DNA of 64,000 bases from Candidatus Marinacidobacterales bacterium (GCA_965219415.1 CBDCNP010000002.1:2528001-2592000); one strand, 5' to 3'. Shown: positions 2,228 through 64,000, counted from the first letter of the stretch. The notes: generated by a model not told the origin, from the sequence alone. Numbers and translations: made by a program.

Positions 2228-2261
2228 GAGCCCGGGTCGCTCACGCGGCCCGTGCTCTCGT
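2228..2261 (+). terminator. Degenerate rho-independent terminator of left groEL
   Basis: GAGCCCGGGTCGC-TCAC-GCGGCCCGtGCTC stem; the U-tract seen in the right copy is mutated to TCTCGT here. Confidence 0.55.
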
Positions 2262-2295
2262 CGTGTCCGAAAACGGGAACGGAACCGCAAGCTCG
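2259..2295. mobile_element. Terminal stub of an integrase-core (IS481-like) element abutting groEL
   Basis: CGTCGTGTCCGAAAAC.GAACGG matches, as reverse complement, the element ends at about 57733-57766 and 63695-63728. Confidence 0.7.
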
Positions 2296-2460
2296 GGTGC
2301 TTGCGCTGTTTACTGTTGGTGATGTGTACGCGTCCCTTCGCAAAAGAGGCGCTTACGCTCGATTTAGCGCGCAGCGAAGGTCATCGGCGCTATTTTGCTG
2401 TAATTTAATGCACCCTAAAGTCTTAGCGTCATCTCACCAACACTTAATGGCGGAAGCACC
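2296..2460. mobile_element. MITE family A, about 165 bp, full copy
   Basis: Imperfect terminal inverted repeats GGTGCTTGCGCTGTTTACTGTTGGTGA / GGTGCTTCCGCCATTAAGTGTTGGTGA; homologous copy at 13655-13820 and partial copies at 5927 and 60452. Confidence 0.85.
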
Positions 2461-2493
2461 CAATTTCGAGTCAGGTCAGGAGGGTTGCTTGCG

Positions 2494-5400
2494 ATGAAGA
2501 AAATTGCTTTGCTTCTCGGGTGCCTAGTTGTCGGTGCAAGCGCGATCTCGGCGCAAAGCGCAACGAAGCAGTTGCAGAGTGCGGATCTTTCCAGCCTTCA
2601 ATGGCGAAACATCGGTCCCGCACGGCCGAGCGGCCGGGTGACTGATCTTGCGGTCCTCGAGTCGAGGCCGAGTACCTTCTATGTGGCCACCGCGACCGGT
2701 GGCGCCTGGAAAACGACCACCAACGGTACGACGTGGACGCCGGTATGGGACAGCGAGGGCAGCATTTCCTTGGGTGCCATTGCCGTCGCTCCATCCAATC
2801 CCGATGTTGTCTGGGTCGGCACGGGCGAGGCTTGGAGTGCGCGGATCTCTTCCTATGGTGATGGCGTCTACAAATCCGAGGACGGCGGGAAAACCTGGCA
2901 CCACATGGGCCTCCGAGAAACCCGCTACATCGGCCGCATCGCCATTCATCCCCAAGACGAGAACACGGTTTACGTCGCGGCACTTGGATCGCTCTGGGGG
3001 CCAAACGAGGAACGAGGTTTGTTCAAGACCACCAACGGGGGGAAATCTTGGACCAAGATGCTCTACAAGAACCCTCACACGGGCGCAGTCGAGGTTGCGC
3101 TCGCCCCTTCTCGCCCTGAGACGGTATATGCTGCAACCTACCTGCGGGAGCGGCGGGCATGGAACTTCGTGGGTGGGGGACCGGAGAACGGTCTCTACAA
3201 ATCGATAGACGGAGGTGAGAGCTGGGTCGAGCTAACCAACGGTCTTCCCGAAGTGGACATGGGGCGTATCGGACTTTCCATTTGCCGAAGCCAGCCAAGC
3301 ACTATCTATGCGGCTATCGAGGCGCAGCGAGATGCAGGGGGGATCTTCCGCTCCGACGACCGTGGCGCCAGTTGGGAGCGGCGTACCGGAAAGTGGAACA
3401 CACGTCTCGACTACGGAAAGCTCAATTGCGACCCCAACGATCCGGAGAGCCTGTGGTTGATGCACATGCGGCTCTCTCGCTCCGACGATGGCGGGGAGAC
3501 GTTTCGCACCGACGTGGTCGGTCGCGGAGGGCACGCGGACTGGCGCACGATGTGGATCAACCCCACGAACTCAGATCATCTCATCTCCGGCAGTGACGGT
3601 GGCGTTTATCTATCTTACGACCGGGGCAAGAGCTGGAGCTTCATTGGGAATCTCCCAGTATCGCAGTTCTACGACGTCGCGGTCGATATGCAAGAACCCT
3701 TCTACTACGTCTACGGCGGGCTTCAGGATAACGGCACCTTCGGTGGACCGAGTGGAACTCGTTATTCGGATGGAATTACCAATGCCGATTGGAAACTGAC
3801 GACGGGGGGGGACGGTTTCTACGTTCAAATCGATCCCCAGGATCCGACCATCGTCTACAGCGAGTGGCAGTACGGGTTTCTGAATCGTTTCGATACACGA
3901 ACCGGAGAGCGTCACTTCATTCAACCGCAACCTCCGGAAAAGGAGAACTATCGTTGGAACTGGTCCTCGCCCCTGGTGCTCTCACAGCACGATCGCAAGA
4001 CCCTTTACTTCGGTGCGAATTACCTCTTTCGTAGCCGAAACCGGGGCGACAGCTGGGAGACCATCGGTCCCGATCTCACACGCAACTTGAATCCCCATGA
4101 GCTGCCGCTGATGGGCAATGTGTGGCCGAAGGATGCCGTAGCCTACCACGCGGGGACCGCCGATTATGGAAGTATCTCCACCATCGCCGAGTCGCCACTC
4201 AGGGCCGGAGTCCTTGCGGTCGGTACCGACGATGGCTTGATTCAAGTGACGACCGATGATGGGGAAAATTGGTTCCGCGTCGGGACCATCCCCGGTGTTC
4301 CGAACCAAGCGTGGGTGACGCGTGTCGTGCTGTCCGGGCATGACGAGCAGACGCTTTATGCCACGATCGACGCACACCACGACAACGACTTCCGACCTTA
4401 TGTGGTCAAGAGTGCGGACTTAGGTCGCACTTGGAAATCGATTACCGCCAACTTGCCGGAGTTCGGTCACGCGCGGACGCTCGCCGAGCATCCCCGAAAT
4501 CCGAATCTCCTGTTCGTGGGAACCGAGTTTGGCGTCTTCTTATCGCTGGACGGCGGGAACCGCTGGGTCCGGCTCAAGAACAACCTGCCCACCGTCAATA
4601 TTTACGACATATTAATTCATCCCCGAGAGAACGATCTTGTCATCGCCACTCATGGCCGTGGGCTTTGGATTCTAGACGACATCGGAATCTTGGAAAGTGT
4701 GGGACAGGCCTGGGGCAAGGAGCTTCACGTAGCGTCCGTCCGCCCGGCGACCCAGCTCCACCGCTATACCCGTAATCAAGGCTCCATCGGGACGGATCAT
4801 TTTTCGGCGCCCAATCCACCCGACGGGGCCACCATCACTTATTATGTGAATCCGTCATCGCTCGAAGGTGACGGCGGAAAACGCGTGGAAGTCGACATCT
4901 TGGGTGCGGGCGGCGAGTTCGTGCGCCGATTACATACGAATCAAGGGCAGGCAGGCGGTGGCATCCGGCGTTTGATTTGGGATCTGAGGCATCCACTTCC
5001 CTATGACATCACTCCCGAGGAGGCGCGAAACAGTTGGCAGCCTCCCCCGCGCGGGGCATTCGTCATTCCCGGTGAATACCGCGTCCGCTTGCGACTCGGC
5101 GACGAGGAGGTGTCGCAATCGATAACTGTACGAGGCGATCCCGCCATCTCCATCTCCACCGGGAACCGGCGCCTTTGGCACGATACACTGCTTCGTCTCG
5201 CCGAGATGGATGCGGCAGCACGCGGATCGGTGGCTACGGCGCAACAGGTGCAAGAGCAACTAAAGGAAATCGCAAAAGTGCTCGCGTCCAATCCCAACAC
5301 TGCGGCCACGTTGGGCGAGGAATTGCGCAGCCTTCAATCCCAGGTAGACGGTATTTTGGATAACCTCCTGGGTCGTGGCCCTCGGGACGTTGCGGAGCAG

Positions 5401-5646
5401 CCCAAGGCGCCGCCCATTGCCCGACGCATCCGGGAGACCTACGCTTTCGTCGAAGCATCGACCGCCCGTCCTACCGATGACCAATTGCGCATTACCGAGG
5501 AGACGGGCAAGCGACTGAGCGTCGAAGTCGCAAGGATCGATCGTTTGGTGGTCGAAACGATTCCCGCCTTCAACCGGAAGCTCGACACCCTCGGGGTTCG
5601 ATGGACTCCCGGCCGGTCTCCCGGAGTGCGGACTACGACGCAGTGA
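2494..5646 (+). CDS. Secreted VPS10/sortilin-like BNR(Asp-box)-repeat beta-propeller protein (putative glycoside hydrolase-like)
   Basis: Signal peptide MKKIALLL; WRNIGP..GRV; repeated S.DGG.TW Asp-boxes; GGLQDNG; ATHGRG; AGGAGG RBS upstream of ATG 2494. Confidence 0.85.
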   Translation: MKKIALLLGCLVVGASAISAQSATKQLQSADLSSLQWRNIGPARPSGRVTDLAVLESRPSTFYVATATGGAWKTTTNGTTWTPVWDSEGSISLGAIAVAPSNPDVVWVGTGEAWSARISSYGDGVYKSEDGGKTWHHMGLRETRYIGRIAIHPQDENTVYVAALGSLWGPNEERGLFKTTNGGKSWTKMLYKNPHTGAVEVALAPSRPETVYAATYLRERRAWNFVGGGPENGLYKSIDGGESWVELTNGLPEVDMGRIGLSICRSQPSTIYAAIEAQRDAGGIFRSDDRGASWERRTGKWNTRLDYGKLNCDPNDPESLWLMHMRLSRSDDGGETFRTDVVGRGGHADWRTMWINPTNSDHLISGSDGGVYLSYDRGKSWSFIGNLPVSQFYDVAVDMQEPFYYVYGGLQDNGTFGGPSGTRYSDGITNADWKLTTGGDGFYVQIDPQDPTIVYSEWQYGFLNRFDTRTGERHFIQPQPPEKENYRWNWSSPLVLSQHDRKTLYFGANYLFRSRNRGDSWETIGPDLTRNLNPHELPLMGNVWPKDAVAYHAGTADYGSISTIAESPLRAGVLAVGTDDGLIQVTTDDGENWFRVGTIPGVPNQAWVTRVVLSGHDEQTLYATIDAHHDNDFRPYVVKSADLGRTWKSITANLPEFGHARTLAEHPRNPNLLFVGTEFGVFLSLDGGNRWVRLKNNLPTVNIYDILIHPRENDLVIATHGRGLWILDDIGILESVGQAWGKELHVASVRPATQLHRYTRNQGSIGTDHFSAPNPPDGATITYYVNPSSLEGDGGKRVEVDILGAGGEFVRRLHTNQGQAGGGIRRLIWDLRHPLPYDITPEEARNSWQPPPRGAFVIPGEYRVRLRLGDEEVSQSITVRGDPAISISTGNRRLWHDTLLRLAEMDAAARGSVATAQQVQEQLKEIAKVLASNPNTAATLGEELRSLQSQVDGILDNLLGRGPRDVAEQPKAPPIARRIRETYAFVEASTARPTDDQLRITEETGKRLSVEVARIDRLVVETIPAFNRKLDTLGVRWTPGRSPGVRTTTQ

Positions 5647-5710
5647 ATGGGACCAATCGTCGCGGTTCTGAACGCACGCGGCCGCGGGTTGGCTTACAGC
5701 GTGGTCTGCC

Positions 5711-5926: not shown

Positions 5927-5967
5927 GGTGCTTGCGCTGTTTACTGTTGGTAATGTGTACGCCATCC
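5927..5967. mobile_element. MITE family A, truncated left end
   Basis: GGTGCTTGCGCTGTTTACTGTTGGTAATGTGTACG matches 2296 onward; interrupted by another element end at 5968. Confidence 0.75.
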
Positions 5968-6165
5968 CGTCCAGTGCCAAAACTCGGCTGTGCCTTCTAT
6001 TTATTCATCCGCGCGCCCCGAACCTGATCGGTCTCCGATCTGCCGGGACTATGCCTGCATGATTTCGTCGTTTTTTCGTGCTCGGCCCTGGGCACGGCCG
6101 CAAACCAGACTCTAAGTTGCTGATTTATGGGCTATTTCAAAAGGGCTGAGTTTTGGCACAGGACG
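5968..6165. mobile_element. MITE family B (5989-6165, internally deleted IS481-like element) plus a 21-bp end stub (5968-5988)
   Basis: Left end TGTGCCTTCTATTTATTCATCC, transposase start codons (MISSFFRA), right end ..GCTATTTCAAAAGGGCTGAGTTTTGGCACAGGACG; the same ends recur at 10961/11107, 57019, 60221, 62417 and 63134. Confidence 0.8.
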
Positions 6166-6214
6166 GGGTCTTGCCGGTTCCCACGCTATCGTCAGCGGTG
6201 CAGCACAGCCGGCA

Positions 6215-6613
6215 CTATTGAACGAAGTGATACGTGATCTGGTCGAAGCGGTCCCGCGCGAAGGAGAACACGAAGAACAGCGGCTCCGAGCCGGTGCATC
6301 GGAGCGCGTGCCTGGCATTGGCAGGGATGTAGATTGCGCAGCCGGGCCCGACCGCCGTCGTGTAATCGTCGATCTTCATCTCCCCTCGGCCGCTAACGAC
6401 GTAATAGGTTTCCTGGGGCTCGTGGTGGTGAAGCAGTAGTTGCGCGCCGGGCGGGAGTTGTGCAATGCCCGTGACGAGGCCGCTGCTTTCCGTGCGTTCG
6501 CCTGTGATCAGGAGCTTCCAGCGTATCGCGCTCTTGGTAGCGAGGGTGGTGTTGCGCCAGCCTTCCCAATCGAGGGTGGCTTGGTCGATAATGATAGGTT
6601 TGCGCATGTTCAT
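6215..6613 (-). CDS. Cupin, DddK/DddW-like candidate DMSP lyase
   Basis: IRWKLLI..SSGL..GIA.LPPG..L.LHHHEPQETY; YIPANARHAL; DRF..ITYHF. The HxH-x3-E-x-Y and distal H/Y pattern match DddK as recalled. Confidence 0.7.
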   Translation of the reverse strand: MNMRKPIIIDQATLDWEGWRNTTLATKSAIRWKLLITGERTESSGLVTGIAQLPPGAQLLLHHHEPQETYYVVSGRGEMKIDDYTTAVGPGCAIYIPANARHALRCTGSEPLFFVFSFARDRFDQITYHFVQ

Positions 6614-6730
6614 TGAACTACCGGTCGACCACCTTTTTTTTGCACTATTTTGTGTGATTTTAATGTGATTCTTAAAGCTAAATGCGTGAAATATTTGTGA
6701 ATTCTTCCATAAATTGCCACCATCGAGACC

Positions 6731-7789
6731 TGTGCATCGTCAAAACTGCTCCGCCCACGAAATCAAGGACTTACGCTCCGCTTGAATTCCGGGCCGAAGA
6801 CGGCGAAACTCCGCCGCTATGCTCAACGTTATTGTCTTCCTCGTCTCACTTGGCGTCCGTGTCATTCGGGCGATGTGTCGGCGCCGCGCCGACCTGGTGT
6901 TGGAGAACGTCGCTTTGCGGCAGCAAGTGACGGTGCTGAAGAAAGAGCGCCCACGCCCACCGCTCGAAGACACGGAACGGGCTTTCTGGGTTGCTCTTCG
7001 AGGTTCGTGGCCCGTGTGGGCGAGCCGCCTGCTCATCGTCCACGCGGACACCGTGGCCCGTTGGCATCGCGACCGATTCCGACGGTACTGGGCAAAGATC
7101 TCGCAGCGCCGCCATCCCGGTCGGCCTCGGATTGATGCCGAGATTCGCCGCCTCGTCCGCACGATGGCGCAAGACGGCTGGGGGGCGCCACGCATCCATG
7201 CTGAGCTCACCAAGCTCGGTTTCATCATCTCCGAGATTACGGTGTCGCGATACCTACCGCGGCATCCTGCGGAGCCCGACCAGCTGAAGCGATGGATGGC
7301 TTTCTTGCGCAACCATAAAGACGATATCGCCGCCATGGATCTGTTCACCGTGCCCACCGCTTCGCTCCGGCTGCTGTACGGCTTCTTCGTCATCGAGCAC
7401 GGCCGTCGGCACATCGTTCACTTCAACGCCACGTTCCACCCGACGTCTGCTTGGGTTATTCAGCAACTGCGTGAGGCGTTTCCCTACGACACCGCTCCGA
7501 AATATCTCATCTTCGATCGCGACTTCATCTTTAGCGCTGGGGTCATCGAGTTCATCAAAGCAACGGGCACAAAACCCGTTCGCACCTCGTTTCGCAGCCC
7601 ATGGCAAAACGGAACCGCGGAGCGGTGGGTCGGCAGCTGCCGTCGCGAGTTCCTTGAGCACGTCGTGGTTCTCGGCGCATGTCATCTCATCCGGCTCGTG
7701 CGAGCTTACATCAGCTACTATCACGAGGACCGTTGCCACTTGGGGCTGAACAAGGACACACCGAGCTTGAGAGCGGTCACGCGCCAACC
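6731..7789 (+). mobile_element. IS481-like integrase-core IS, copy 1, 3'-truncated
   Basis: Left end TGTGCATCGTCAAAACT; near-identical to the inverted copy at 8168-9478; cut at 7790 by MITE-C. Confidence 0.85.
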
Positions 7790-7835
7790 CGTGAGGTCAA
7801 AATACTCATGCGGCTTCCCGATGGTAGAAACGTAG
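6819..7835 (+). pseudogene. Integrase core (rve, DDE) transposase with replaced C-terminus
   Basis: LENVALRQQ, WGAPRIHAEL, DLFTV, DRD, SPWQNGTAER; lacks the GGLHHRY tail of copy 2. Confidence 0.85.
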
Positions 7836-8042
7836 CAGCCCGCCAAAGCCGTTCAAGGGAGCGCACCTTGCGCTCGGACTGAGGGACTGGTCGCTGGCTG
7901 GGAACAGCAGGAGATTCTCCTTGCCTTGATGATTCCTTCCGCTGAACTGGAATGCGTATCCGACCGCGATGGCGGATTCAAGCGGCCCTTGGAAAGGTGC
8001 AAACTGCTGACCCGCTGGGCGTTCGAGTATTTTGACCAGACG
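7790..8042. mobile_element. MITE family C, 253 bp, internally deleted integrase-core element
   Basis: Terminal inverted repeats CGTGAGGTCAAAATACTC / CGTCTGGTCAAAATACTC (16/18); retains the transposase tail NHQGKENLLLFP..GGLLRFYHREAA; related to 63729-63876. Confidence 0.8.
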
Positions 8043-8167
8043 GGATCGTCGGTGAAGGGCATCGCGGTGCCGCGAACGACGGTGTCATGGCCCTCGAGTT
8101 CCGTTCGTTCGGTCGTCATGCCTCTATCTTCGCCTGTCGCGGTCACGCTGGCAATGATCCACAGCCT

Positions 8168-9478
8168 TGTGCCCCGCAAAAAGTCGACCCGGTGTCCATC
8201 ATCATTATTAATCCGGGACTGGACTCTAGGGCCCGGACCACCCTCGAGCACATGCTGGAGAGCGTGGTCAGCGCGCGAGGGAAGGTGCTGAGGACGAACT
8301 TCTCGGCGACCAGCCGAGTAACGCGAGCGACCAAGCTGACTCAGGCTGCCTCTCGCCACTCGTATCGATGGTGCAGTCCACCGACTCGCGGCAGTGCGAC
8401 GACTTTCGCCGTAGGAGACGGTCGGTGCGTGACCGTTCTCAAGCTCGGTGTGTCCTTGTTCAGTCCCAAGTGGCAACGGTCCTCATGATAGTAGCTGATG
8501 TAAGCTCGCACGAGCCGGATGAGATGACATGCACCGAGAACCACGACGTGCTCAAGGAGCTCGCGACGGCAGCTGCCGACCCACCGCTCCGCGGTTCCGT
8601 TTTGCCATGGGCTGCGAAACGAAGTGCGAACGGGTTTTGTGCCCGTTGCCTTGATGAACTCGATGACCGCAGCGTTAAAGATGAAGTCGCGATCGAAGAT
8701 GAGATATCTCGGAGCGGTGTCGTAGGGAAACGCCTCGCGTAGTTGCTGAATAACCCAAGCAGACATCGGGTGGAACGTGGCGTTGAAGTGAACGATGTGC
8801 CGGCGACCGTGCTCGATGACGAAGAAGCCGTACAGCAGCCGGAGCGACGCGGTGGGCACGGTGAACAGATCCATGGCGGCGATATCGTCTTTATGGTTGC
8901 GCAAGAAAGCCATCCATCGTTTCAGCTGGTCGGGCTCCGCGGGACGCCGCGGCAGGTATCGCGACACCGTGCTCTCGGAGATGATGAAACCGAGCTTGGT
9001 GAGCTCAGCATGGATGCGTGGCGCCCCCCAGCCGTCTTGCGCCATCGTGCGGACGAGGCGACGAATCTCGGCATCAATCCGAGGCCGACCGGGATGGCGG
9101 CGCTGCGAGATCTTTGCCCAGTACCGTCGGAATCGGTCGCGATGCCAACGGGCTACGGTGTCCGCGTGGACGATGAGCAGGCGGCTCGCCCACACGGGCC
9201 ACGAACCTCGAAGGGCAACCCAGAAAGCCCGTTCCGTGTCGTCGAGCGGTGGGCGTGGGCGCTCTTTCTTCAGCGCCGTCACTTGCTGCCGCAAAGCGAC
9301 GTTCTCCAACACCAGGTCGGCGCGGCGCCGACACATCGCCCGAATGGCACGGACGCCAAGTGAGACGAGGAAGACAACAACGTTGAGCATAGCGGCGGAG
9401 TTTCGCCGTCTTCGGCCCGGAATTCAAGCGGAGCGTAAGTCCTTGATTTCGTGGGCGGAGCAGTTTTGACGATGCACA
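8168..9478 (-). mobile_element. IS481-like integrase-core IS, complete copy 2 (1311 bp)
   Basis: Ends TGTGCATCGTCAAAAC and TGTGCCCCGCAAAAAG (TGT...ACA); single transposase ORF; no target duplication visible. Confidence 0.85.
8341..9390 (-). CDS. Integrase core domain (DDE) transposase
   Basis: 349 aa; D-D-E motifs DLF/DRD/AER; GGLHHRYEWREAA C-terminus. Confidence 0.9.
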   Translation of the reverse strand: MLNVVVFLVSLGVRAIRAMCRRRADLVLENVALRQQVTALKKERPRPPLDDTERAFWVALRGSWPVWASRLLIVHADTVARWHRDRFRRYWAKISQRRHPGRPRIDAEIRRLVRTMAQDGWGAPRIHAELTKLGFIISESTVSRYLPRRPAEPDQLKRWMAFLRNHKDDIAAMDLFTVPTASLRLLYGFFVIEHGRRHIVHFNATFHPMSAWVIQQLREAFPYDTAPRYLIFDRDFIFNAAVIEFIKATGTKPVRTSFRSPWQNGTAERWVGSCRRELLEHVVVLGACHLIRLVRAYISYYHEDRCHLGLNKDTPSLRTVTHRPSPTAKVVALPRVGGLHHRYEWREAA

Positions 9479-10960
9479 GCCCGCGGCGAGCGGCCCGTAG
9501 CCGAAGAAGCCGTTGGAACCGGCCGAGAAGCCCTGCCCGCGTCCATAGGGACCGACTGTCCACGATGTCGGATGACCCTCGGTAGTCTGGTACTGCTCGT
9601 CACGCCATTCCGCGCCAACGGCGAGGTTGACCATCTCGGTAGCGGCGTAGGAGACATCGAAGTTGACGCCGGTCTCCCGCTGCCGGTTGCTACCGAGATC
9701 GAACGCGGTCGGCGTGTCGGGACCGAGCGAGGCGTTGACGGTGTCGGAGATGAACAGATCAGTCTCGTGAGCCCCGACCGAGCCGCTCACGTCCCAGACG
9801 AAGCCGGCCGCAGTGAAGCCACGGACGCCGACGACGAGTGACACGTCCGTCGCTTCGCCACCGAAGTTCGGGGTGAAACCGCCTGGAAACCGCTCCCGGA
9901 ACGAGAAGCAGTTTGGGTCGTCGAACACCTGCTCCAGGGCGGCCGCGTCGGCGACGTGGTCAGTGATCGCGACCGTGGGGCAGTTCGCCGAGCTGGTGCC
10001 TTGCCGCCATGAGCGCGTCGCCGATCAGCAGCGTTTTGCCGCCGTCGATGCTGAAGACGCCGCCCCGCGTGTTCGGGTTCCGGAAGAAGAATCCCCCCGT
10101 CACTTTTTTGCTGGCGTAGTTCGTGTGGCTGTAGAACTGCACGCCGTTGGCGGCGGTGTAGCCGAAGTTCCCGAACAGCTTCATGTCGTCGTCGACCCGC
10201 GGCGAGCCCCAGACCTGAGGCGTGTCGGAGGCGATGTCCGAATTCCCGGCCGCCCGCAGCGCGATCGCATCGCTGCGAGGCGCGCTCCGATTGGTCGGAT
10301 TCGAGCTGCCATACTCCAAGCTGAGGTTGGCGAAGCCGGTGGCGCCAAGCGGCAGCCCAACATTTCCGGCGACGTTGAAGGCTTCACCGTCGCCCGATCC
10401 GAAAGTGCCGGTGTTGAACGCGAGTGTGCCCCCCGATGGAGCATCCTTGAGCTGGAAGTTCATCACGCCGGCGATCGCGTCCGAGCCGTACTGCGCCGCC
10501 GCGCCGTCGCGCAGCACCTCGACCTGCCGCAACGCAATCGACGGAATGGCCGAAATATCGGGGCCCTGTGACCCGAAGGCGACGCCGTTGCCGCCGTGCC
10601 AGTCGATGATCGACGAGCGGTGGCGGCGCTTGCCGTTGATCAGGACGAGCGTATGGTCCGGCGCGAGGTTGCGTAGCATTGCCGGCCGAACGACCGTCGA
10701 GGCGTCGCTTATCGGCTGTGTGTTGATGTTGAACGACGGGACGATCGTCCTAAGCTGCTCCTGCAGGTTGACGGCGCCCTGCCTGGTGATGTCGAAGGAG
10801 GAGAGAACATCGACCGGCACCGGTGACTCGGCGACCGTCCGCGGCTGCGCACGAGTACCGACGACGACCGTCTCCTCGGTATAGCCCTCCAGCAAAAACT
10901 GCATCTCCTCGGAGGACAGATCCATCGCCTCGATCTCCGCCGTGGTCATCCCGAGCACCC
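9479..10960 (-). pseudogene. TonB-dependent receptor internal fragment (plug plus start of barrel), frameshifted near 10000
   Basis: EETVVVGTRAQPRTVAESPVPVDV, LVLINGKRRH, VEVLRDGAAAQYGSDAIAGVMNF; both ends coincide with element termini (9478, 10961). Confidence 0.85.
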
Positions 10961-11107
10961 TGTGCCTTCTATTTATTCATCCGCCAGCCCATGGGTCGGA
11001 AGTCAGCCCTGCGGCGCGAAATACCCTGGATTCTGCACGGATTCCAAGGGCGTCTAAGCTGCTGATTTGTGGTCTATTTCTAAAGGGCCGAGTTTTGGCA
11101 CAGGACG
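10961..11107. mobile_element. MITE family B, 147 bp
   Basis: TGTGCCTTCTATTTATTCATCCGC ... CTAAGCTGCTGATTTGTGGTCTATTTCTAAAGGGCCGAGTTTTGGCACAGGACG. Confidence 0.8.
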
Positions 11108-11496
11108 GGGAAGGCGTCAAGACCGAGCGTCGTTTCCCGCTCGGTGCCTGCTCCCGTCCGGTCGTGGAAGACGAAGCCGTCGCCGTTGGAGGAAAACACG
11201 AAAGGGATATTGAGGGCCTCGGCGTAATCCAGCCCTTGCGGCATCCCGTCGCTGATGGCGTGGGTGTTATCCTTGGCCTCGATCAGGGCGATGGGGATGT
11301 TGGGCTTGTAATAAAGGATGTAGTCGGCCCGCTTGCCCTTTCCCCGGCTGACCAGCTTGCCGCGAACGATGATGCGGCCCTTGGTGAAGCTGACCTCCTC
11401 GCGAATTTGCGCCATCTCGTCCCACCCGGCCTGGCGCAAGGCCGGTGTGATGAACTTGGTGCAGATGTCACGCTCACTGAGGCTTTTCTTGTCCAT
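11108..11496 (-). pseudogene. hsdR: Type I restriction endonuclease subunit R (EcoAI/EcoEI-like), N-terminal fragment
   Basis: [22 protein letters not shown]; [15 protein letters not shown]; FSSNGDGF; truncated at the MITE-B end. Confidence 0.85.
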
Positions 11497-11559
11497 TGCT
11501 CCGGCCATGATATCAGCACCAAATTCCAGAAGGGCCATTAGCGCTTGAGGAGGACAGAG

Positions 11560-11659
11560 TCCTCAAAGCTCGGCTTCGCGGGAGGAAGCTTCGCTCAAAC
11601 CTTGGCGGACTCTAGTTGAGGCCTAATTATCACAGGTAAACCCCCGGCTCTGCCGGGGT
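11560..11659. mobile_element. Possible IS200/IS605-family end remnant
   Basis: Hairpin AAACCCCCGGCTCTGCCGGGG resembles the IS200 subterminal hairpin as recalled; no tnpA present. Confidence 0.45.
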
Positions 11660-11660
11660 G

Positions 11661-11733
11661 TGAAGTGACCCCGCTTTCGTGGACAGGTTAAGAGTTAGGG
11701 ATCAAGCGGCGCGATAGTACCTCCTTTCGAATT
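11661..11733 (-). mobile_element. IS3-family right-end remnant
   Basis: TGAAGTGACCCCGCTTTCGTGGACA terminal repeat and OrfB-like tail FERRYYRAA-stop; cut by IS256. Confidence 0.6.
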
Positions 11734-13654: not shown

Positions 13655-13820
13655 GGTGCTTGCGCTGTTTGCTGTTGGTGATGTGTACGTATCCCTTTGC
13701 AAAAAAAGAGCTTACGCTCCATTTAGCACGCAGCGAAAATCGTGAGCGCTATTTTAGCTGTAATTTAATGCAGCGTAAAGTCTTAGCGTCATTTTACCAA
13801 CACTTAATGGCGGAAGCACC
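13655..13820. mobile_element. MITE family A, second full copy
   Basis: Aligns end to end with 2296-2460; GGTGCTT...AAGCACC termini. Confidence 0.85.
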
Positions 13821-14326: not shown

Positions 14327-14422
14327 TGGCGGAGAGGGTGGGATTCGAACCCACGTGCCCGGTTACTAACCGGACAAGACGCTTTCGAGGCGCCCCCGTT
14401 ACGACCACTTCGGTACCTCTCC
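14327..14422 (-). tRNA. tRNA-Ser(CGA)
   Basis: GGAGAGG..; anticodon arm GGCGC-CT-CGA-AA-GCGTC; long variable arm; GGTTCGAATCC T-loop; encoded CCA. Confidence 0.97.
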
Positions 14423-55567: not shown

Positions 55568-56939
55568 GAGCTCTTGTCAATAGGTGTGTAAAAAAGTTCA
55601 GGCAGCAGCAACCTTCGACGACTCCGTTACCCTGTCTCCATCTTCAAATCGAACGCCCAGGTGAACCTCTCGCATCAGCTCCGGTGCGTTGAGCCGGCGA
55701 AAATTCTTCTCCGCAACCAGAAGCAGTTTGAAGATTGTCGCAGTGGCGGACTCGACTTTCTTGAACCTTTTGGCCGCATCCGTTCTCAATCTCAGTGCAG
55801 CGAACGGTGACTCCACGACGTTGCTCGTGCGAAGGTGTTGCCAGTGAGGCTTGGGAAAGGAATAGAAGCTGACCATCCGCTCCCAGTCCTCGTCGAGCAC
55901 GTGCGCGGCCCCCGGAAGACCCTTGCGCAAGCACCAATCCTGGAACTTGGCCTTCTTCGTCTCGCACTCCTGCAGGCTGGTGGGGTAGGGGATCGCCGTC
56001 AACAGCGGCTTGGCCTGCGCCTGGTCCCTTTTCGGAATCCGGTCCAGTACGTTGAGGATTCGGTGGTTCCAGCACCGCTGCTCCTCAGCTTCTGGAAATA
56101 CGTTTCGGGTCGCGGCCCAGATGTCGAGATGACCGTCACCGATCACCAAACGGGGACATCTCAGACCGCGCTTCTTCAGTCTCCGTAGCAGCGACGACCA
56201 TGACGCTTCGGATTCTCGATGCCCGGCCTCCAGCGTCAGGACGATTTTCGTCCCGTCGGACAGGCCACCAACCGCAACTAGCACCGCCGCCTTGTCCTTC
56301 TCAAGGCCGGCCTTCACGTACACGCCATCTACCCACAGGGACACGAGCTCGAGTTCGTCCAGTGGGCGAGCTAGCCACTGCTCGTACTCTCCCTGCCATT
56401 TCTGTTTCAGCCGCGACACCGTGCTGGAAGAAAGTGGAGCGTCCTCCCCTAGAAGCCCGCGGAGCGCCAGATCGAAATCTCCGTGAGCTAGTCCATGCAG
56501 GTACAGCTCCGGAATCAACTCGCTCACCGTTTCGCTCCGACGCTTGAACAGCGGAAGCACTCGACTTTCGAACCTCTCCTCCACGTCCCCTACTCTCGGC
56601 CGGCGAACCGTCACTGTGCCCACGCTCATCGTCAGCTTCCGAGGCTTACCGTATCCATTTCGATAGCCCGCCGTTGTGTCCACGGGCTTCCGTCTCTCCG
56701 ATTTCTCACGCCCGAGAAGCTCCGTGACTTCGGCTACCATCAGCTCCTGCACCCAATCCTGGATCTCGAGCCTCGCCCACTTCTCCAGCGACTCCCAAGC
56801 CACCCTTGACGAGCTCCGTCGTCTTGTGGTCTTTTCCTTCATGGCGGTGTCTCCTTCCGTTGGCCCCTTCACGCCGTGTTTCGTGACGCGGAAGGTTACT
56901 CCGCCTTTACTTTATTTCCACACCTTCTGAGGGTAGCTC
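55568..56939 (-). mobile_element. IS256-family element (distinct from the one at 11734)
   Basis: Ends GAGCTCTTGTCAATAGGTGTGTAAAAAAG / GAGCTACCCTCAGAAGGTGTGGAAATAAAG; no target duplication. Confidence 0.9.
55598..56842 (-). CDS. IS256 transposase
   Basis: GYRNGYG, WVDG, IGDG, QRCWNH, TSNVVESPF. Confidence 0.93.
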   Translation of the reverse strand: MKEKTTRRRSSSRVAWESLEKWARLEIQDWVQELMVAEVTELLGREKSERRKPVDTTAGYRNGYGKPRKLTMSVGTVTVRRPRVGDVEERFESRVLPLFKRRSETVSELIPELYLHGLAHGDFDLALRGLLGEDAPLSSSTVSRLKQKWQGEYEQWLARPLDELELVSLWVDGVYVKAGLEKDKAAVLVAVGGLSDGTKIVLTLEAGHRESEASWSSLLRRLKKRGLRCPRLVIGDGHLDIWAATRNVFPEAEEQRCWNHRILNVLDRIPKRDQAQAKPLLTAIPYPTSLQECETKKAKFQDWCLRKGLPGAAHVLDEDWERMVSFYSFPKPHWQHLRTSNVVESPFAALRLRTDAAKRFKKVESATATIFKLLLVAEKNFRRLNAPELMREVHLGVRFEDGDRVTESSKVAAA

Positions 56940-56944
56940 AGCCT

Positions 56945-57019
56945 AGGGGGCCCTTGGCCCAGTCGCTAAGCTGCTGATTTATGGTCTATTTCAAAAGGGC
57001 CGAGTTTTGGCACAGGACG
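56945..57019. mobile_element. Family B right end
   Basis: CTAAGCTGCTGATTTATGGTCTATTTCAAAAGGGCCGAGTTTTGGCACAGGACG. Confidence 0.8.
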
Positions 57020-57400
57020 GGGTCCTGCCGAGTCAGCAGAAGCTCCGCCATCATGAAGTTGGTCAGGAGAATGTCCGGCGGGTTGTCTGCGACCCGCTGG
57101 CGTTCCTCCTGGTTCTCCTGCCCGGTGTAACGCCGGACCACCGGCTTGAGGTTCTCCGAAAGGCCCGACTGGTCGATGAATCTGTTGATTTCCTTGACCT
57201 GGCTGTTAGCGAGTGCGTTCATCGGGTATACGATGATCGCGCGTGTCCTTGGCCCATAACCGGCCTTCCGTGCACGGATGATGGCATCCACGATCGGAAC
57301 GAAAAAACAGAGGGATTTGCCCGAGCCGGTCCCCGTGGTCACAACGAAACTCTGTCCCGCCCGCGCTTTGGCGAAGGCTTGCCCTTGGTGCCTGTGAAAT
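57020..57400 (-). pseudogene. DEAD/DEAH helicase internal fragment (YprA/DUF1998-type, often defence-linked)
   Basis: HRHQ Q-motif, TTGTGSGKS, YPMNALANSQ, RYTGQE, PPDILLTN. Confidence 0.85.
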
Positions 57401-57586
57401 GGAAGCCGCGCTGTTGGTCACGCTGGATCCAACCAGCGATGGCGACCACCAACCATGTCAAGGGCTGCATCGGCGTGCTCATGACTGGGGATTCTAGCTT
57501 CCATTGGCGAACCAAGCGCAGACACCTCGAATCCGAAACGTCCCGGCGCAAGGGTCTTGAATTCGTTTGTGTTTTTGGACACGACG
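57400..57586 (-). mobile_element. Left end and first codons of another integrase-core element
   Basis: End CGTCGTGTCCAAAAAC; MQPLTWLVVAIAGWIQRDQQR leader typical of this transposase class. Confidence 0.6.
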
Positions 57587-57659
57587 CCCTTGAATGCCCC
57601 CGGTATTTACAGACGCGTCGAACGTTCGCTCTCCCCACTCCAGAAGGATCGTGCGAACA

Positions 57660-57766
57660 GCACGGGTCGCCTATAGCAGAGCCAGTGCCGCGTCGGCTAC
57701 TCTCCGCGAATTTCGAGAACGCCTCTAGGATTCGAGCTTGCGGTTCCGTTCGCGTTTTCGGACACG
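57660..57766. mobile_element. Element end abutting right groEL
   Basis: Homologous to 63620-63728; ends GCGTTTTCGGACACG. Confidence 0.65.
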
Positions 57767-57800
57767 AAAAAAGCCCGGGCCGCGTGAGCGACCCGGGCTC
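57767..57800 (-). terminator. Rho-independent terminator of right groEL
   Basis: GAGCCCGGGTCGC-TCAC-GCGGCCCGGGC-TTTTTT on the minus strand. Confidence 0.85.
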
Positions 57801-57816
57801 TCGGGAAGTGTGTAGC

Positions 57817-59469
<1,653 letters not shown>

Positions 59470-59485
59470 TTACAATACCTCCAAG

Positions 59486-59776
59486 CTATTCCACGATGCC
59501 GAGTACTTCGTCCTCTTTGAGGATGAGGTACTCAGTTCCGTCCAGTTTCACTTCCGAGCCCGAGTATTTGCCGATGAGCACTTTGTCGCCCACCTTCACC
59601 TCGAGCGCAACCTTCTTTCCGTCATTCAAAGTCCGGCCCGATCCGATGGCTATGACTTCGGCCGTCATCGGCTTTTCCTTCGCCGTGTCGGGAATGATGA
59701 TGGATCCGACTTTCTTCTCGTCTATCTCCTCGATCCGCTTCACGACAATGTTGTCCTTTATCGGTTTGATCTTCAT
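59486..59776 (-). CDS. groES: Co-chaperonin GroES, second copy
   Basis: 96 aa; one difference (KLDG vs KLNG). Confidence 0.99.
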   Translation of the reverse strand: MKIKPIKDNIVVKRIEEIDEKKVGSIIIPDTAKEKPMTAEVIAIGSGRTLNDGKKVALEVKVGDKVLIGKYSGSEVKLDGTEYLILKEDEVLGIVE

Positions 59777-59839
59777 TTCTCGATTATTCCTCCTTGTTAT
59801 CTAGGACCGGCCGTCGGGGTCGAACTCCCAAAACGGCGG

Positions 59840-60171
59840 TCAACCACTGATGAGAATCTGACGGCCTTTCTCGCTCGCCTTCTTCGGCATGGTCACCGTC
59901 AGAATGCCCTTCTTGAAATCGGCCTTTACTTTGTCCGTATCGATGCTTGTCGGGAGCTCGAACGTGCAATGGAACAGGCCGTAGGTTCCATGCAAACGAT
60001 GAGAACAAAGCTCTTTTCGGTTTCGTAGAGATCCACAGCGGGGGACCATGCCCCAGTGGTCGACAGCTCTCCCTCGGAGCGCGTGCGCGACAGCGTCTGA
60101 TCGATTCGCCGGTTCATCCGTTCTTGAGGCGCAAGAAGCTCACGCACGGGATCCCAATGGGCGAGTGGCAT
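59840..60171 (-). pseudogene. Hsp20 with internal deletion and frameshift
   Basis: MPLAHWDPVREL..WSPAVDLYETEKSFVL then a shifted frame GTYGLF..KKGILTVTMPKK. Confidence 0.85.
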
Positions 60172-60195
60172 TTGTAATTCATCAACCTCAACATA

Positions 60196-60220
60196 TTAGC
60201 ACTCTACACACCCGAGTGCT
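60196..60220. promoter_or_regulatory. CIRCE (HrcA operator), outer 2 bp replaced by an element terminus
   Basis: TTAGCACTC-TACACACCC-GAGTGCT|TGTGCC versus consensus TTAGCACTC-N9-GAGTGCTAA. Confidence 0.9.
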
Positions 60221-60451
60221 TGTGCCTTCTATTCATTCATCCGCGCGCACCGAACTTGATTAGTCTCCGGTCTGCCAGCACTATGCCGGCATGATTTCGT
60301 CGTTTGTTCGCGCTCTCGTCTCTGCCTTCAAGGCTCGTCGCGAGCTGGCTCTCGAGAATGTCGCTCTTCGCCAGCAGCTCGCCGTGCTCCACCGTTCGGT
60401 GAAACGGCCGCGGCTCTCGAATGTCGACCGCGAGTTTTGGGTGCTGTTGCG
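60221..60451 (+). mobile_element. Family B left end with transposase N-terminus
   Basis: TGTGCCTTCTATTCATTCATCC; MISSFVRAL..RELALENVALRQQLAVL..KRPRL; cut by MITE-A. Confidence 0.85.
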
Positions 60452-60507
60452 GGTGCTTCCGCCATTAAAGTGTTGGTGAGATGACGCTAACACTTTACGC
60501 TGCATTA
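60452..60507. mobile_element. MITE family A, partial, inverted
   Basis: GGTGCTTCCGCCATTAAAGTGTTGGTGAGATGACGCTAA is the reverse complement of the 2460 end. Confidence 0.8.
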
Positions 60508-60628
60508 TCCCCAGGGTACTGGTGCCCTATGTGCCAAGCGGCGTCGCGGTGGATTGCTTTCTACATCGTGCCGTCAAGCTTCGACCCATCCCTCACTGTG
60601 CCTCACCGGCGCATAGTAAGATGGCGCG

Positions 60629-60803
60629 ATGAGCCTCAAACGTATCGTCGAGCAATCCGACACGCGGGCGGGGCGCTGGTTCGATAGGGTTGTCTCCGCT
60701 CTCATCGTCGTCTCGCTCATCACGTTCTCGATCGAAACCCTGCCCAATCTCCCGCCGGCGGCCTCGGCGGTGCTCTATTGGATCGAGTTTGCGACCGTTC
60801 TAC
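60629..60803 (+). pseudogene. Ion transporter/potassium channel N-terminal fragment, cut by IS5
   Basis: IVEQSDTRAGRWFD..LIVVSLITFSIETLP..WIE matches S1-S2 of Kv-like channels. Confidence 0.7.
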
Positions 60804-61892
60804 TGCCTTGGTGCACAACTCCGATAGAGGCCGAGAGCTCGCTTGGCCCCGACTCCCATCATCCGATCATCTCGCTATCAGGCATCCCGAGCACCGTCAT
60901 GGTGTTGAGAATCTTGCACCCGATCCTTGCCTCACCTCTCTGTGCCGCCAACCCTCTCGCTCGCATCGCTGAGCCCACGATAGCCTTGTAGCGATGGAAC
61001 GTTGTCTCGACTTTGCTCCGTTTGCTGTAGCCCGATTCTGTGTGCCACTTTCGTTTGCCGAGCCGAGCTTGTGCTGCAATGTTGCGATTGCGCTGTCGGC
61101 TGCTCGCCGGCCCCGATGCGAGCAGGGCGCCCTTGCGCGGCGGTATCAGCACCCTCGGCGAGCGATGAGCGCTGTGATTCTCGATTGCCTCATAGACGCC
61201 GCCGGCGTCGTATGCGGTGTCAGCTCTGGCCGATGAGATGGGACTGTCGATCTGTCCGACAAGCGATGCAACCCGCGATGAATCGCGGGCTCTTTTGCTC
61301 GTCAGCTCGCCGGCGACGACTTCGCCACTCTGCTCGTCGACACACAGATGGAGCTTGCGATAGTCCCTGCTCTTTTGTGCTCTGCGCAGCTGGCCGGCGT
61401 GGACAGCGAGACCGCTGCTGTCGAACAAGATGTGCAACGGCGTCTTCTGCTTGATTTGGTAGAAGGGGACCTTACCCAGCTTCGGCTTGCGCCTCGAGAT
61501 CGTGGTGTGATCGGGCACATCATTGTCTAGCTTCATCAGAGCGAACAACGACCGCAGCAATCCCTCGCTCTGCCTAGATGACAGATGAAACACCATGCCC
61601 AGGGTGACAGCCGTCTCGATGGCGTGGTTCGAGTACTTGCGTTGACGGCCCGGTTTCCTCCTCCTTGGCCGGGGGCGCGTCCCAGTTCACAAGCTTGCCG
61701 GCGGTGAGCGAGATCCAGACGGTCAGGCTCCCGCGGTTGCGTAGACCCGCCTCATATTCACGCCAATTCCTCACGCGATAGGCCTTCTTCACATACTTCC
61801 CGCTGAGTGCGTTTGAAAATGCTCATGGGGAACCTCGTATCCGCGAGTACAGGACAATTGTGGACCGAGATCGCGAGTTGTGCACCAAGGCA
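60804..61892 (-). mobile_element. IS5-family (IS903-group-like) element
   Basis: Perfect 18-bp inverted repeats TGCCTTGGTGCACAACTC; no clear target duplication. Confidence 0.92.
60859..61826 (-). pseudogene. IS5-family transposase with two frameshifts (about 61800, 61672)
   Basis: YRVRNWREYEAGLRNRGSLTVW, PDHTTISRR, DSSG, ADTAYD, RSKVET. Confidence 0.88.
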
Positions 61893-61992
61893 CCGTATTG
61901 GTACAATTCCGGCGGCCCTGTTACCCTGTCCGTGACTGTTACGGCTGGCCGACGGAGCGGGCCATCACACGCAACTATTCTAGGAGATAAAA

Positions 61993-62319
61993 ATGGCAAT
62001 CAGAATCATTGTTGGCCTCATCTGGCTATTGGCGATTGTGCAGGGCTTGGCCGCTGAGGCAGTTCCCGCTGGGATCGTGGCCCTCGCACTGGTTGTTCTG
62101 GGCTTGGTGTATGGCGGTTTGGCGATCGACGCTGAGGACGCGACAGCCTACTTGGTATTGACTCTTGCAGTCGGCGCTACTGCAGGTGCGGACGTACTGA
62201 GTCACATCCAAGTGATTGGCGGTTCCCTGGACGCCATCGTCGATCAGGTCAGTACCTCTCTTTATGCCGGGGTCGTGACCGTGCTTGCCAAGAGGGCGCT
62301 CAAGCTCGTCAAGGGTTGA
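61993..62319 (+). CDS. Small four-TM membrane protein, hypothetical
   Basis: 108 aa, hydrophobic; AGGAGA RBS. Confidence 0.7.
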   Translation: MAIRIIVGLIWLLAIVQGLAAEAVPAGIVALALVVLGLVYGGLAIDAEDATAYLVLTLAVGATAGADVLSHIQVIGGSLDAIVDQVSTSLYAGVVTVLAKRALKLVKG

Positions 62320-62339
62320 AATCTTGTTTCCAGGAGCTA

Positions 62340-62417
62340 AGGGCCCGGTCGCAAACACAGACACCAAGCTGCTGATTTATAGGCTATTTCAAAAAGCCCG
62401 AGTTTTGGCACAGGACG
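62340..62417. mobile_element. Family B right end
   Basis: AAGCTGCTGATTTATAGGCTATTTCAAAAAGCCCGAGTTTTGGCACAGGACG. Confidence 0.8.
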
Positions 62418-62858
62418 GGACGCTGCAACAGTTTCCGGGAGGCGATTGGGTGCGAGCACGACTATCGATTCGTCATCGTGGACCGCGATGGGAAGTTCTC
62501 AGCAGACCTCCGCCGCTCCGTCCGGGGGATGGGTGTTCGGCCGTTGAGGACGCCGCGCAGAGCACCGCAGGCGAATGCCTATTGTGAGAGACTCATCGGC
62601 ACCACACGCCGGGAGTGCTTGGATTTTCTGATACCGCTGTCGGAGGAACATCTCTGCCGACTCTTGACCGAATGGCGTGACTACTACAATCGGGCGAGAC
62701 CGCATTCATCGCTCGGCCCAAGCCTTCCCACCCCCTGTGTCGAGCTTCCGATGAAACCGGACCAGCACCGACATCAATTACCCGCCCAGCGCGCCGTTGC
62801 CTCGAGGCCGGTCCTTGGTGGGCTCCATCACGATTACCGGTTGGCACGCGTCGTCTGA
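62418..62858 (+). pseudogene. Integrase-core transposase C-terminal fragment
   Basis: DRDGKFS, APQANAYCERLIGT.RRECLD, YNRARPHSSL, GGLHHDY. Confidence 0.85.
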
Positions 62859-63024
62859 CGGAGCTAGGTTCTCGCGGGGAACAACGCGTTCTTTCTGAAG
62901 CACGTTATTGCGTCGGTGGCCCGGCAGCGACAGAGTGCAGAACCTCCACCGAGGCGAACACGAGTTCGCAGGACCTCAACTCCCATGGCTGTCTGCCCGT
63001 CAATTCGCGATCTTCTTTTTTGCG

Positions 63025-63134
63025 GATCATAAGAGATGAGAGCGCGAACAAACGACGAAATCATGCCGGCATGGTGCCGGCAGACCAGAGATTAATCAAG
63101 TTCGGTGCGCGCGGATGAATAAATAGAAGGCACA
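63025..63134 (-). mobile_element. Family B left end, inverted, with MISSFVRAL start
   Basis: GGATGAATAAATAGAAGGCACA is the reverse complement of the left end. Confidence 0.8.
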
Positions 63135-63619
63135 CCGCTCGCGCCAATCTCATGCAGCTCGAGTTTATGGAAGAGACAGGTAATTCAAGTCACGCAGCCT
63201 CGAACGGCTGATCTGCACCGCCCTGACCCCGGCTCACTCTGCGATGCCGCGTTGTCGCAGGGTGGCCTAGAAGGCGAAGCCGCCACCCCCTCGGGTGGGG
63301 CCGGTTGGAATCTGCGGCCAACGCCGACGTCTTTATTAGACGCGATGGCGTTCGCCGGCGCACCCAGGCCAACTGACGCTAGCATTCAAATGCCTCTAGC
63401 GGCGTAGTAACACTGGATGGCAGAAGCACTCTTCGAGTAGTGTAGACTCCTGACATTGAGGTGTTCGATGGCGGACAGGCGCGTGTGCTCTGCAAAAAGT
63501 CTATCCGGCGTTGGTTGCGCGTTTTGGACCTGCTATGGTCGGCTGCTTCTGACGGATCTTCTTTTTTGCGGATCACAGCGCAAGCTGGACGGAACGGATG
63601 GTTTGGAGGAGAGCTTCTG

Positions 63620-64000
63620 CTCGGCCTCGCCTATCGCAGACCCCGTGCCGCATCGGCAGGTCTCCGCGAGTTTCAAGAACGCCTCTAAGATTCGAGATTG
63701 CGGCTCCGTTCGCGTTTTCGGACATGACGGGAATCATCAAGGCAAGGAGAATCTGCTGCTGTTCCCAGCCAGCGACCAGTTACCTCAGTCCGAGCGCAAG
63801 GTGCGCTCCCGTGAACGGCTTGGCGGGTTGCTACGTTTCTACCATCGGGAAGCCGCATGAGTATTTTGACCTCACGGGGGGCTCCATCACGATTACCGGT
63901 GGTCGAGCGTCGCCTGACTGACCTAGCTTCTCGCGACCAACAACGCGTTCTTTATCCAACACATTACTGTGTCGGTGGCCCGGCGGCGACAGTGTGCAGA
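63620..64000 (+). mobile_element. Three stacked element remnants (ends at 63728 and 63876; 63877-64000 repeats about 62820-62940)
   Basis: Direct homology to 57660-57766, to 7790-7935 (rc) and to 62820-62940. Confidence 0.75.

Follow-up and report, generated by a model that had tools for sequence, protein, structure and literature searches.

Insertion sequence ends without target duplications mark rearrangement breakpoints in a Candidatus Marinacidobacterales genome

In a 64,000-nt stretch of the genome of a Candidatus Marinacidobacterales bacterium, unrelated pieces of host DNA lie exactly between short termini of transposable elements. The stretch (positions 2528001-2592000 of contig C3; hereafter, the window) raises the question of whether these pieces are cassettes, captured and stacked by a transposase, or the remains of rearrangements at element ends. 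A first-pass annotation of the window had proposed capture by IS481-like elements and named repeated adjacent deletions as the alternative. The window was compared with its own genome (G000; 8.05 Mb in three contigs, C1 to C3, 59% G+C) and with two congener genomes (G001 and G002). The elements at the termini are IS481-like insertion sequences (ISs) and miniature inverted-repeat transposable elements (MITEs) without target duplications, which mark rearrangement breakpoints at an unusual scale. Adjacent deletion fits better than capture and comes close to our best reading; nothing indicates that the pieces move as cassettes.

Element ends and families

The window was aligned with its own genome using BLAST. 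Element boundaries were taken from pile-ups of alignment starts and ends, which lie mostly at or within 1-5 nt of the annotated coordinates. All 19 annotated termini are located at ends of repeated elements. In the left part of the window, 14 alignments end at 5968, ~110 start at 5985-5989, 41 end at 6165 (~290 further at 6167-6170), 26 start at 6731, 74 end and 19 start at 7789/7790, 59 end at 8042-8044, 46 end at 9478/9479, 34 start at 10961 and ~290 end at 11107-11110. In the right part, the pile-ups comprise ~330 ends at 57019-57024, 45 ends at 57586, 29 ends at 57767, 85 starts at 60221, ~320 ends at 62417-62420, 112 ends at 63134, 12 ends and 31 starts at 63729/63730 and 69 ends at 63876-63878. 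Two coordinates, 2259 and 8168, belong to short stubs without a pile-up of their own. The first stub (2259-2295, plus strand) is the first 34 nt of an F4 end (CGTGTCCGAAAAC...), which is cut by an F1 MITE; it is identical to 57733-57767 in the inverted arm described below, where the same junction occurs. The second stub (8168-8192, plus strand, 25 nt) resembles the F7 end at 63484, where 27 alignments start, in 20 of 25 nt as compared by eye. The true end of the adjacent full IS is 8193 (61 alignment starts) and not 8168.

The terminus motif YGT-N7-VAAAA occurs 24 times in the window, compared to an expectation of 8.5 ± 3.0, and none of 100 shuffled sequences reached this number. About nine of the matches are found in the repeat-free middle of the window, which is the chance level. 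The motif alone is therefore weak, and the copy-number boundaries carry the proof. The GG reported outside CGT-type ends was recovered as well, since CC precedes, on the element strand, 391 of the 521 occurrences of the 21-nt F2 right end in the genome (at most 3 mismatches). Up to this point the first-pass annotation is confirmed as correct and careful: the termini belong to related elements with an integrase core (rve_3), they join unrelated DNA without target duplication, and many are non-autonomous, since coding copies are far fewer than MITEs and solo ends.

At least seven IS3/IS481-like (rve_3) families with mini-derivatives and one unrelated MITE (F1) were distinguished, each with ~20-400 copies. 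ISA is 1,286 bp long, has TGT...ACA ends and encodes an rve_3 transposase of 349 aa; the termini are TGTCCATCATCA...TGACGATGCACA across 50 full copies. One full ISA is present in the window at 8193-9478 (minus strand; transposase at 8341-9390), and another copy at 6731-7789 (plus strand) is cut off after 1,059 of 1,286 bp. The F2 family (left end TGTGCCTTCTATTTATT..., right end ...GAGTTTTGGCACAGGACG) occurs as MITEs of 177 bp (F2a; 5989-6165, plus strand, TGTGCCTTC...GGCACAGGACG; 38 full copies) and 147 bp (F2b; 10961-11107, plus strand; 70 full copies), as solo right ends and as left ends which bear the N-terminus of a transposase. F3 is a MITE of 253 bp with inverted ends CCCGTGAGGTCAAAATACTC (7790-8042). 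F1 is a MITE of 165 bp with 148 full copies, whose termini (GGTGCTTGCGC...GCGGAAGCACC) are unrelated to those of the other families; it is found at 2296-2460, without target duplication, and again at 13655-13820. F4, F5, F6 and F7 are known here from end pieces alone. F2a, F2b, F3 and F1 are short and non-coding, have terminal inverted repeats and occur in many copies, as expected for MITEs.

Genome-wide, the two ISA ends were counted 79 and 77 times, the F1 ends 179 and 185 times and the F3 ends 91 and 81 times; for F4, F5, F6 and F7 the counts are 21, 133, 22 and 49. In F2, solo right ends are in excess (407 right versus 124 left ends). Identity to the window copy is 97-99.5% for ISA and ~90-94% for F1. 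The elements ISB, ISC and ISD were classified by Pfam or NCBIfam (IS256- and IS5-type), and ISE was considered IS3-like solely on account of its TG...CA ends and 3-4 bp duplications.

In Pfam, the ISA transposase matches rve_3 only. The NCBIfam model for IS481 (NF033577) gives 78.8 bits with a cut-off of 224, and the IS3 model gives 82.3 bits with a cut-off of 160. Judged by these scores, the predicted protein is clearly homologous to IS3 and IS481 transposases, yet it remains below both curated family cut-offs. Homologs number in the thousands, and the rare named ones are called InsO-family transposase, integrase-core-domain protein, putative transposase or hypothetical protein. The transposase is also present in relatives labelled as metagenome-assembled genomes of Candidatus Marinacidobacterales or Acidobacteriota. 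IS481-family elements have a length of ~1-1.3 kb. ISA resembles them in its single-ORF (open reading frame) rve_3 transposase (HTH_32/HTH_21 in homologs), its length of ~1.3 kb, its TGT...ACA ends and its high copy number. The internally deleted mini-elements, which retain the transposase N-terminus, resemble IS481 MITE derivatives. ISA differs from the family in its model score and in the lack of target duplications, which are given as 2-15 bp, mostly 6 bp, for IS481 elements (PMC10045372, with reference to ISfinder).

Target duplications, flanks and the pieces between the ends

A target duplication was counted where an element is immediately flanked at both ends by an exactly matching direct repeat of 4-12 bp. 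As the first-pass annotation had stated for the window, they are missing, and this holds genome-wide: repeats were found in 0/50 copies of ISA, 1/148 of F1 (5 bp), 0/38 of F2a and 1/70 of F2b (4 bp), that is, in 1/108 copies of the two F2 MITEs combined and 2/306 copies of all four families. In the same genome, the IS256-family control ISC has repeats of 7-9 bp in 18 of 33 copies, and ISE copies in the same compartment have repeats of 3-4 bp. Shorter matches at ISA (2 bp in 8/50 and 3 bp in 4/50 copies) are near the expectation for GC-rich flanks. For ISA-like elements in other genomes, 20 of 80 fetched loci were chosen. Six copies from another genome, mutually 99.8-99.9% identical, have no repeat of at least 4 bp (0/6). 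Among 18 loci from other phyla, an inverted-repeat pair was recognised in 15; none of these 15 has a repeat of at least 4 bp, and one has 3 bp. Since nearly identical copies and the loci from other phyla lack repeats as well, age alone does not explain the missing duplications. In addition, the flanks of ISA and F2 show an S-Y|R-S preference which is symmetric about the element, as expected for insertion without stagger.

Two families gave additional observations. At F3 ends, a few partner matches (2-3 of ~43 per end type) were found at offset 7 in the all-against-all partner test described below, a weak hint that F3, unlike the other families, may make 7-bp duplications. ISD has no duplication at the assigned end coordinates, yet one empty-site comparison revealed a duplication of 9 bp, and the assigned ISD ends may be off by about a base.

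The DNA to the left of a copy almost never continues in the DNA to its right, and every element end is therefore a breakpoint of its own. About 60% of the flanks are repeated or duplicated DNA. Where a flank had at least two informative homologs, it was classified as interior or terminus-like, and interior flanks prevail (ISA 38 versus 2, F1 133 versus 11, F2b 53 versus 8). In nearly every case, the homologs continue alike past the junction, and thus the flank is the interior of another element or duplicate and not its end. Among low-copy flanks (one to three other copies in the genome), a paralog continues past the junction in 32/37 cases for ISA, 75/100 for the F2 right end, 14/27 for the F2 left end and 50/82 for F1. 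Candidate empty sites for the joined flanks were obtained for 0/50 copies of ISA, 4/148 of F1, 1/38 of F2a and 6/70 of F2b, five of the six F2b sites being within the copy's own locus. Of 18 candidate empty sites, six were inspected: five (F1 and F2b) are one-sided or weak, and the ISD case mentioned above is a genuine 9-bp duplication. Target duplication combined with insertion into contiguous DNA, a further mark of MITEs, was hence not found in the families tested.

The other half of an interrupted sequence adjoins no catalogued end. When the missing half was searched beside the other end of the same family, it was found in 3/94 cases for ISA, 19/192 for F1 and 7/284 for F2, with scattered offsets; the ISC control gave 8/19, seven of them at offset 8 and mostly from the same physical copy. 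A stricter all-against-all search among 14 end types revealed no class of partners. Split duplications, as left by intramolecular inversion (the left flank of one copy equals the right flank of another), were not in excess. Enrichment was seen in the reverse-complement control alone and is explained by the 21-nt F2 stub, which adjoins ends of both kinds. A model of small deletions, in which both flanks lie near each other at a paralogous locus, was tried and rejected, as only paralogous filled sites and noise were recovered.

In three stubs, namely 34 nt of F4, 21 nt of the F2 right end and 25 nt resembling F7, the resident terminus is present and the rest of the element is gone; in each case, an incoming end cuts the terminus at a short, fixed distance. 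The F2 stub in the window (5968-5988, minus strand) is adjoined by an F2 left end, and the same arrangement, a 21-nt F2 stub directly followed by a TGT-type end, occurs at 23 sites in the genome including this one. In none of the 12 cases in which the next F2 terminus was found does the F2 remainder follow, and five cases look like MITEs whose inverted ends are symmetric and 21 bp long. The junction is either a precise insertion hot spot inside the inverted repeat or an F2 variant with symmetric terminal inverted repeats of 21 bp. The ends which abut the F2 right end at exactly 21 nt belong to at least five families (F2 left, both ISA ends, F6 and one more).

The pieces themselves do sit exactly between termini: a Cupin_2 gene fragment with its upstream region (6166-6730, minus strand), a scrap of 125 bp (8043-8167, unique except for one 45-nt match of 89% identity on C3), a TonB-dependent receptor fragment with Plug domain (9479-10960, minus strand), a DEAD-box helicase fragment (57020-57413, minus strand) and groESL. 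The termini face these pieces, so each piece is outside the elements and not within a mobilisable unit. Second loci with the same boundaries, the test named in the first-pass annotation, were searched, and no piece recurs as a unit of end, cargo and end. The 97.6% identical paralog of the TonB piece (C3:5434510-5435990) continues uninterrupted at both boundaries, and contigs of run X11 show the same uninterrupted flanks. The 93% identical paralog of the helicase piece (C3:2462722-2463115) continues on both sides, with GACG, the last bases of the F2 end, just before the junction. Both other copies of the cupin piece pass 6730 into common sequence. One of them starts at the equivalent of window position 6265, beside an F2 right end, and the other keeps the boundary at 6166, but there the opposite (left) F2 end adjoins. 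The pieces are thus truncated copies of duplicated host DNA, of which longer or intact copies exist elsewhere.

For groESL, four copies with at least 97% identity and differing neighbours are present in the genome. The two in the window (groES-groEL at 252-2211, plus strand; groEL-groES at 57817-59776, minus strand) are part of an inverted duplication with 98% identity, whose arms within the window are 1-2310 and 57718-60027. The complete duplication comprises 2,669 bp (-373 to 2295 for the left arm) and extends into F4 by 34 nt and into the F2 left end by 181 nt. The two copies share junctions only because parts of the flanking elements were included, and the junctions were thus copied with the duplication rather than made again. 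The other two copies have different 3' neighbours straight after the terminator. The common 5' boundary is no element end either, being an internal deletion in an hsp20-like gene. This gene, located upstream of groES (1-60 and 59990-60220), has the deletion in comparison to copies at 4.46 and 5.43 Mb of C3. At a second locus, groESL, an F2 MITE, the cupin gene, ISA and ISB follow in the order and orientation of the window with other insertions and deletions between them, and the two loci look like diverging segmental duplicates. Two further candidate units were checked in the genome: for ISA-TonB-F2b (8193-11107), the outer flanks (the F7 stub and a restriction gene fragment) showed neither a repeat nor continuity, and the left-plus-right unit 60221-62417 does not recur.

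Origin of the patchwork

Transposase-driven end joining with deletion or duplication probably built the patchwork. Element ends would be joined singly to new sites or to broken DNA on the same or the sister chromosome, and related transposases, among them the 349-aa ISA protein, would act in trans on the MITE ends. Joining of single ends would proceed without staggering of the cut and yield adjacent deletions as well as duplication junctions. Repeated many times, and together with ordinary segmental duplication as in the inverted groESL arms, it would result in the arrangement observed. A wider version of this reading is doubtful, according to which a widespread clade of IS3/IS481-like transposases never staggers its target cuts and joins singly, to distant or broken DNA, its own ends and those of many mini-derivatives. 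Every transposition would then rearrange DNA, by deleting it, by forming a duplication junction or by copying a gene fragment, and in this lineage such events would have built a mosaic compartment of 3 Mb whose pieces also pass between co-occurring species.

Several points weigh against end joining. No joining event was directly observed. F1, with its unrelated ends, equally lacks duplications and contiguous flanks; part of the pattern may hence stem from island history (homologous recombination between the hundreds of copies, with deletions) and not from a property of the enzyme. Among 20 left-end copies of F2, no intact autonomous element was found, and the F2 ends have only the motif TGTSC...AAAAC in common with ISA; action in trans is thus read from the similarity of the ends. 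The ends in distant relatives from other phyla were set heuristically. Few copies are usable, as both 100-nt flanks are unique in only 20 of 306. Across joined unique flanks, an open frame was found in 6/20 cases, compared to 3/20 for mismatched pairs and 7/19 for ISC. In the best ISA case, as read by eye from the translation, the interior of an HNH-like gene is joined to the start of an alpha/beta-hydrolase-like gene, which makes it again a breakpoint. A tandem origin (Dup-IS-Dup) was tried and rejected: nearby uninterrupted paralogs numbered 12, 10, 7 and 7 over four configurations, and since no geometry is preferred, a simple origin of this kind is unsupported.

Intramolecular transposition of IS1, IS10 and IS26 generates adjacent deletions and inversions, in which one flank is kept, the other is replaced and the intervening DNA is lost. 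The copies described here are similar in that no duplication surrounds them and one flank is replaced, and differ in that the split duplications of inversion products were sought and not found. Another parallel is an IS481-family element, for which Ngan et al. (mBio 2024, PMC11708052) reported a new copy that lacks a target duplication and is located at a Dup-IS-Dup junction. The report names adjacent deletions as a frequent cause of missing duplications and, for some DDE insertion sequences, gives a proposal of insertion into existing breaks, in which the target is not cut by the element. Like the elements of the window, that copy sits between unrelated or duplicated flanks without duplication, and it carries a few conserved bases outside the inverted repeat, comparable to CGTCC outside TGTGCC in F2. 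The events described in PMC11708052 are single laboratory events, with resident copies having a 4-bp repeat, whereas here more than 300 copies from several families follow the pattern as a rule, and no tandem Dup-IS-Dup geometry is left. If the lack of duplication and continuity is intrinsic to the elements, this genome would be a natural large-sample case for the proposal of insertion at breaks or junctions (PMC11708052), offering hundreds of junctions for study and, for tests, a transposase (8341-9390) and ends that are both defined. More generally, a bacterial chromosome can carry, next to a clean core, a compartment of megabase scale in which gene fragments are shuffled.

A serious rival, although on balance an unlikely one, is ordinary nested insertion with target duplications, followed by recombination between direct copies which erased all duplications and contiguous flanks. 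Hundreds of copies with 90-99% identity lie a few kb apart, and a deletion between direct copies yields the left flank of one insertion and the right flank of another around a single element, without a partner, just as found. The families are also older than the control, in which identity to the window copy is 99.1-99.8%, and the behaviour of F1 is readily accommodated. However, recombination would have had to leave duplications in 2/306 copies in a genome where 18/33 ISC copies kept them. The burst of nearly identical copies elsewhere and the inverted-repeat pairs from other phyla lack repeats too, and the flank preference is symmetric about the element itself.

Far less credible than either reading is capture, in which one transposase family acting in trans on heterologous ends moves and stacks cassettes of host DNA. 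Known gene-capture systems are composite transposons, translocatable units of IS26, one-ended capture by ISCR/IS91 elements and integron cassettes. The window resembles them in that segments are bounded by mobile-element sequence, exactly at the ends, and in the excess of solo F2 right ends. The same pieces also occur at other loci in different order, the left boundary of the cupin piece recurs at a third locus beside an F2 end, and pieces of the islands match at 98-99% identity between congeners, compared to ~85% for the syntenic genes. Nevertheless, the ends face the cargo, no unit of end, cargo and end recurs, copies run uninterrupted through both boundaries (TonB, helicase) or the right one (cupin), the groESL 5' boundary is a deletion within a gene and no pairs of different end types were found for interrupted targets, so that capture is largely refuted by the test proposed with it. 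Neither a HUH or tyrosine recombinase nor an integron-type integrase was found among 10 ORFs of the window which were scanned, and neither the same cargo with both ends at two or more loci nor a duplication around a unit, as in composite transposons, was seen.

Chimeric joins at repeats in a metagenome-assembled genome are the most improbable source of the breakpoints. In their favour, the genome is rated 8.45% contaminated, no public run contains at least half of the sampled words of a 6-kb stretch, and at element junctions the Logan contigs from four runs either end or diverge; since repeats are expected to have this effect, the contigs neither validate nor question the assembly. On the other hand, many junctions lie at MITEs or stubs of just 21-250 bp, and the reciprocal partners which false joins should leave were not found. 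Assembly error is unlikely because other independently assembled genomes show the same architecture (a truncated copy abutting a full copy, without duplications) and because the duplications of ISC and ISE copies in these regions are perfect.

Genomic setting and further features

By self-alignment, the window has three parts: two repeat-dense islands (1 to ~14,326 and 55,568-64,000) and a block of 41 kb between them. The middle block contains a single IS, the control ISE (39167-40429, plus strand; 1,263 bp, TG...CA ends, 3-4 bp duplications in other copies), and is partly syntenic with the two congeners at ~85% identity. In G001, nothing of 150 bp or more aligns with the left island, which thus has no counterpart there, and its matches in G002 are copies of MITEs and of the F2 left end only. 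Orthologous empty sites of the left island were looked for in both congeners and none was found. A tRNA-Ser(CGA) gene (14327-14422, minus strand) is located exactly at its inner edge, where similarity to the congeners begins (at 14327 in G002 and 14439 in G001). The left island may therefore be a tRNA-associated genomic island. In an Rfam scan, the repeats matched no RNA family, and one tRNA was the sole match.

Further elements in the left island are a type I restriction R subunit fragment (11080-11538, minus strand; N-terminal part, cut by the F2b end at 11107) and ISB, a Mutator/IS256-type IS identified by domain match and BLAST (11736-13087, plus strand; transposase at 11831-13024). The right island begins with the control ISC (55568-56939, minus strand; 8-bp duplications elsewhere), followed by a solo F2 right end of 60 nt (56960-57019, plus strand), the helicase piece, an F5 end fragment (CGTGTCCAAAAACAC..., 57404-57586, minus strand) and an F4 end of 100 nt (57668-57767, minus strand) next to groESL. 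Behind groESL, an F2 left end with transposase N-terminus (60221-60451, plus strand, 231 bp) is cut by an F1 fragment (60452-60507). ISD, an IS5-family IS by domain match and BLAST, is found at 60804-61892 (minus strand), a solo F2 right end of 76 nt at 62342-62417 (plus strand) and F6, the 3' part of an rve_3 IS with the end ...GCGGATCATA, at 62418-63029 (plus strand; C-terminal transposase part at 62478-62858). The remaining elements are an inverted F2 left end of 103 nt (63032-63134, minus strand), an F7 end piece with an F6-type end at 63577 (63484-63577), an F4-type end (63627-63729, minus strand) and half of an F3 MITE (63730-63878, minus strand).

In the genome, the IS481-like families and F1 are nearly confined to 2.5-5.7 Mb of C3 and to contig C2, with minor clusters at 0.5-1.0 and 1.75-2.0 Mb of C3. 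By contrast, the IS256-type elements ISB and ISC are scattered across all contigs. The genome is also larger than those of the congeners (8.0 Mb versus 4.7-6.3 Mb). The repeat-rich compartment may stem from an acquired replicon, from fusion with a relative or from an assembly join. A literature search found no paper on 'Marinacidobacterales', and searches on IS481 elements, MITEs, target site duplication and sponges found nothing specific; on missing target duplications, the literature yielded PMC11708052 and PMC10045372.

The BNR/sortilin-like gene of the left island (2485-5646, plus strand) has a paralog of 78% identity on C1, and the best matches in the congeners reach 77%. Given these low identities, it is a divergent extra copy without an ortholog in the searched genomes.

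A small island in the core region (G000, C3:755001-775000, positions 8545-12016, locus L094; also loci L096 and L097) contains pieces which are 98-99% identical to the two congeners, whose syntenic genes are only ~86% identical. This difference suggests recent exchange of island DNA between species. One gene common to this island and G001 is cut by an F2 right end in G001 and continuous in G000, and in G002 the same gene carries an insertion of ~1.4 kb flanked by a 9-bp direct repeat.

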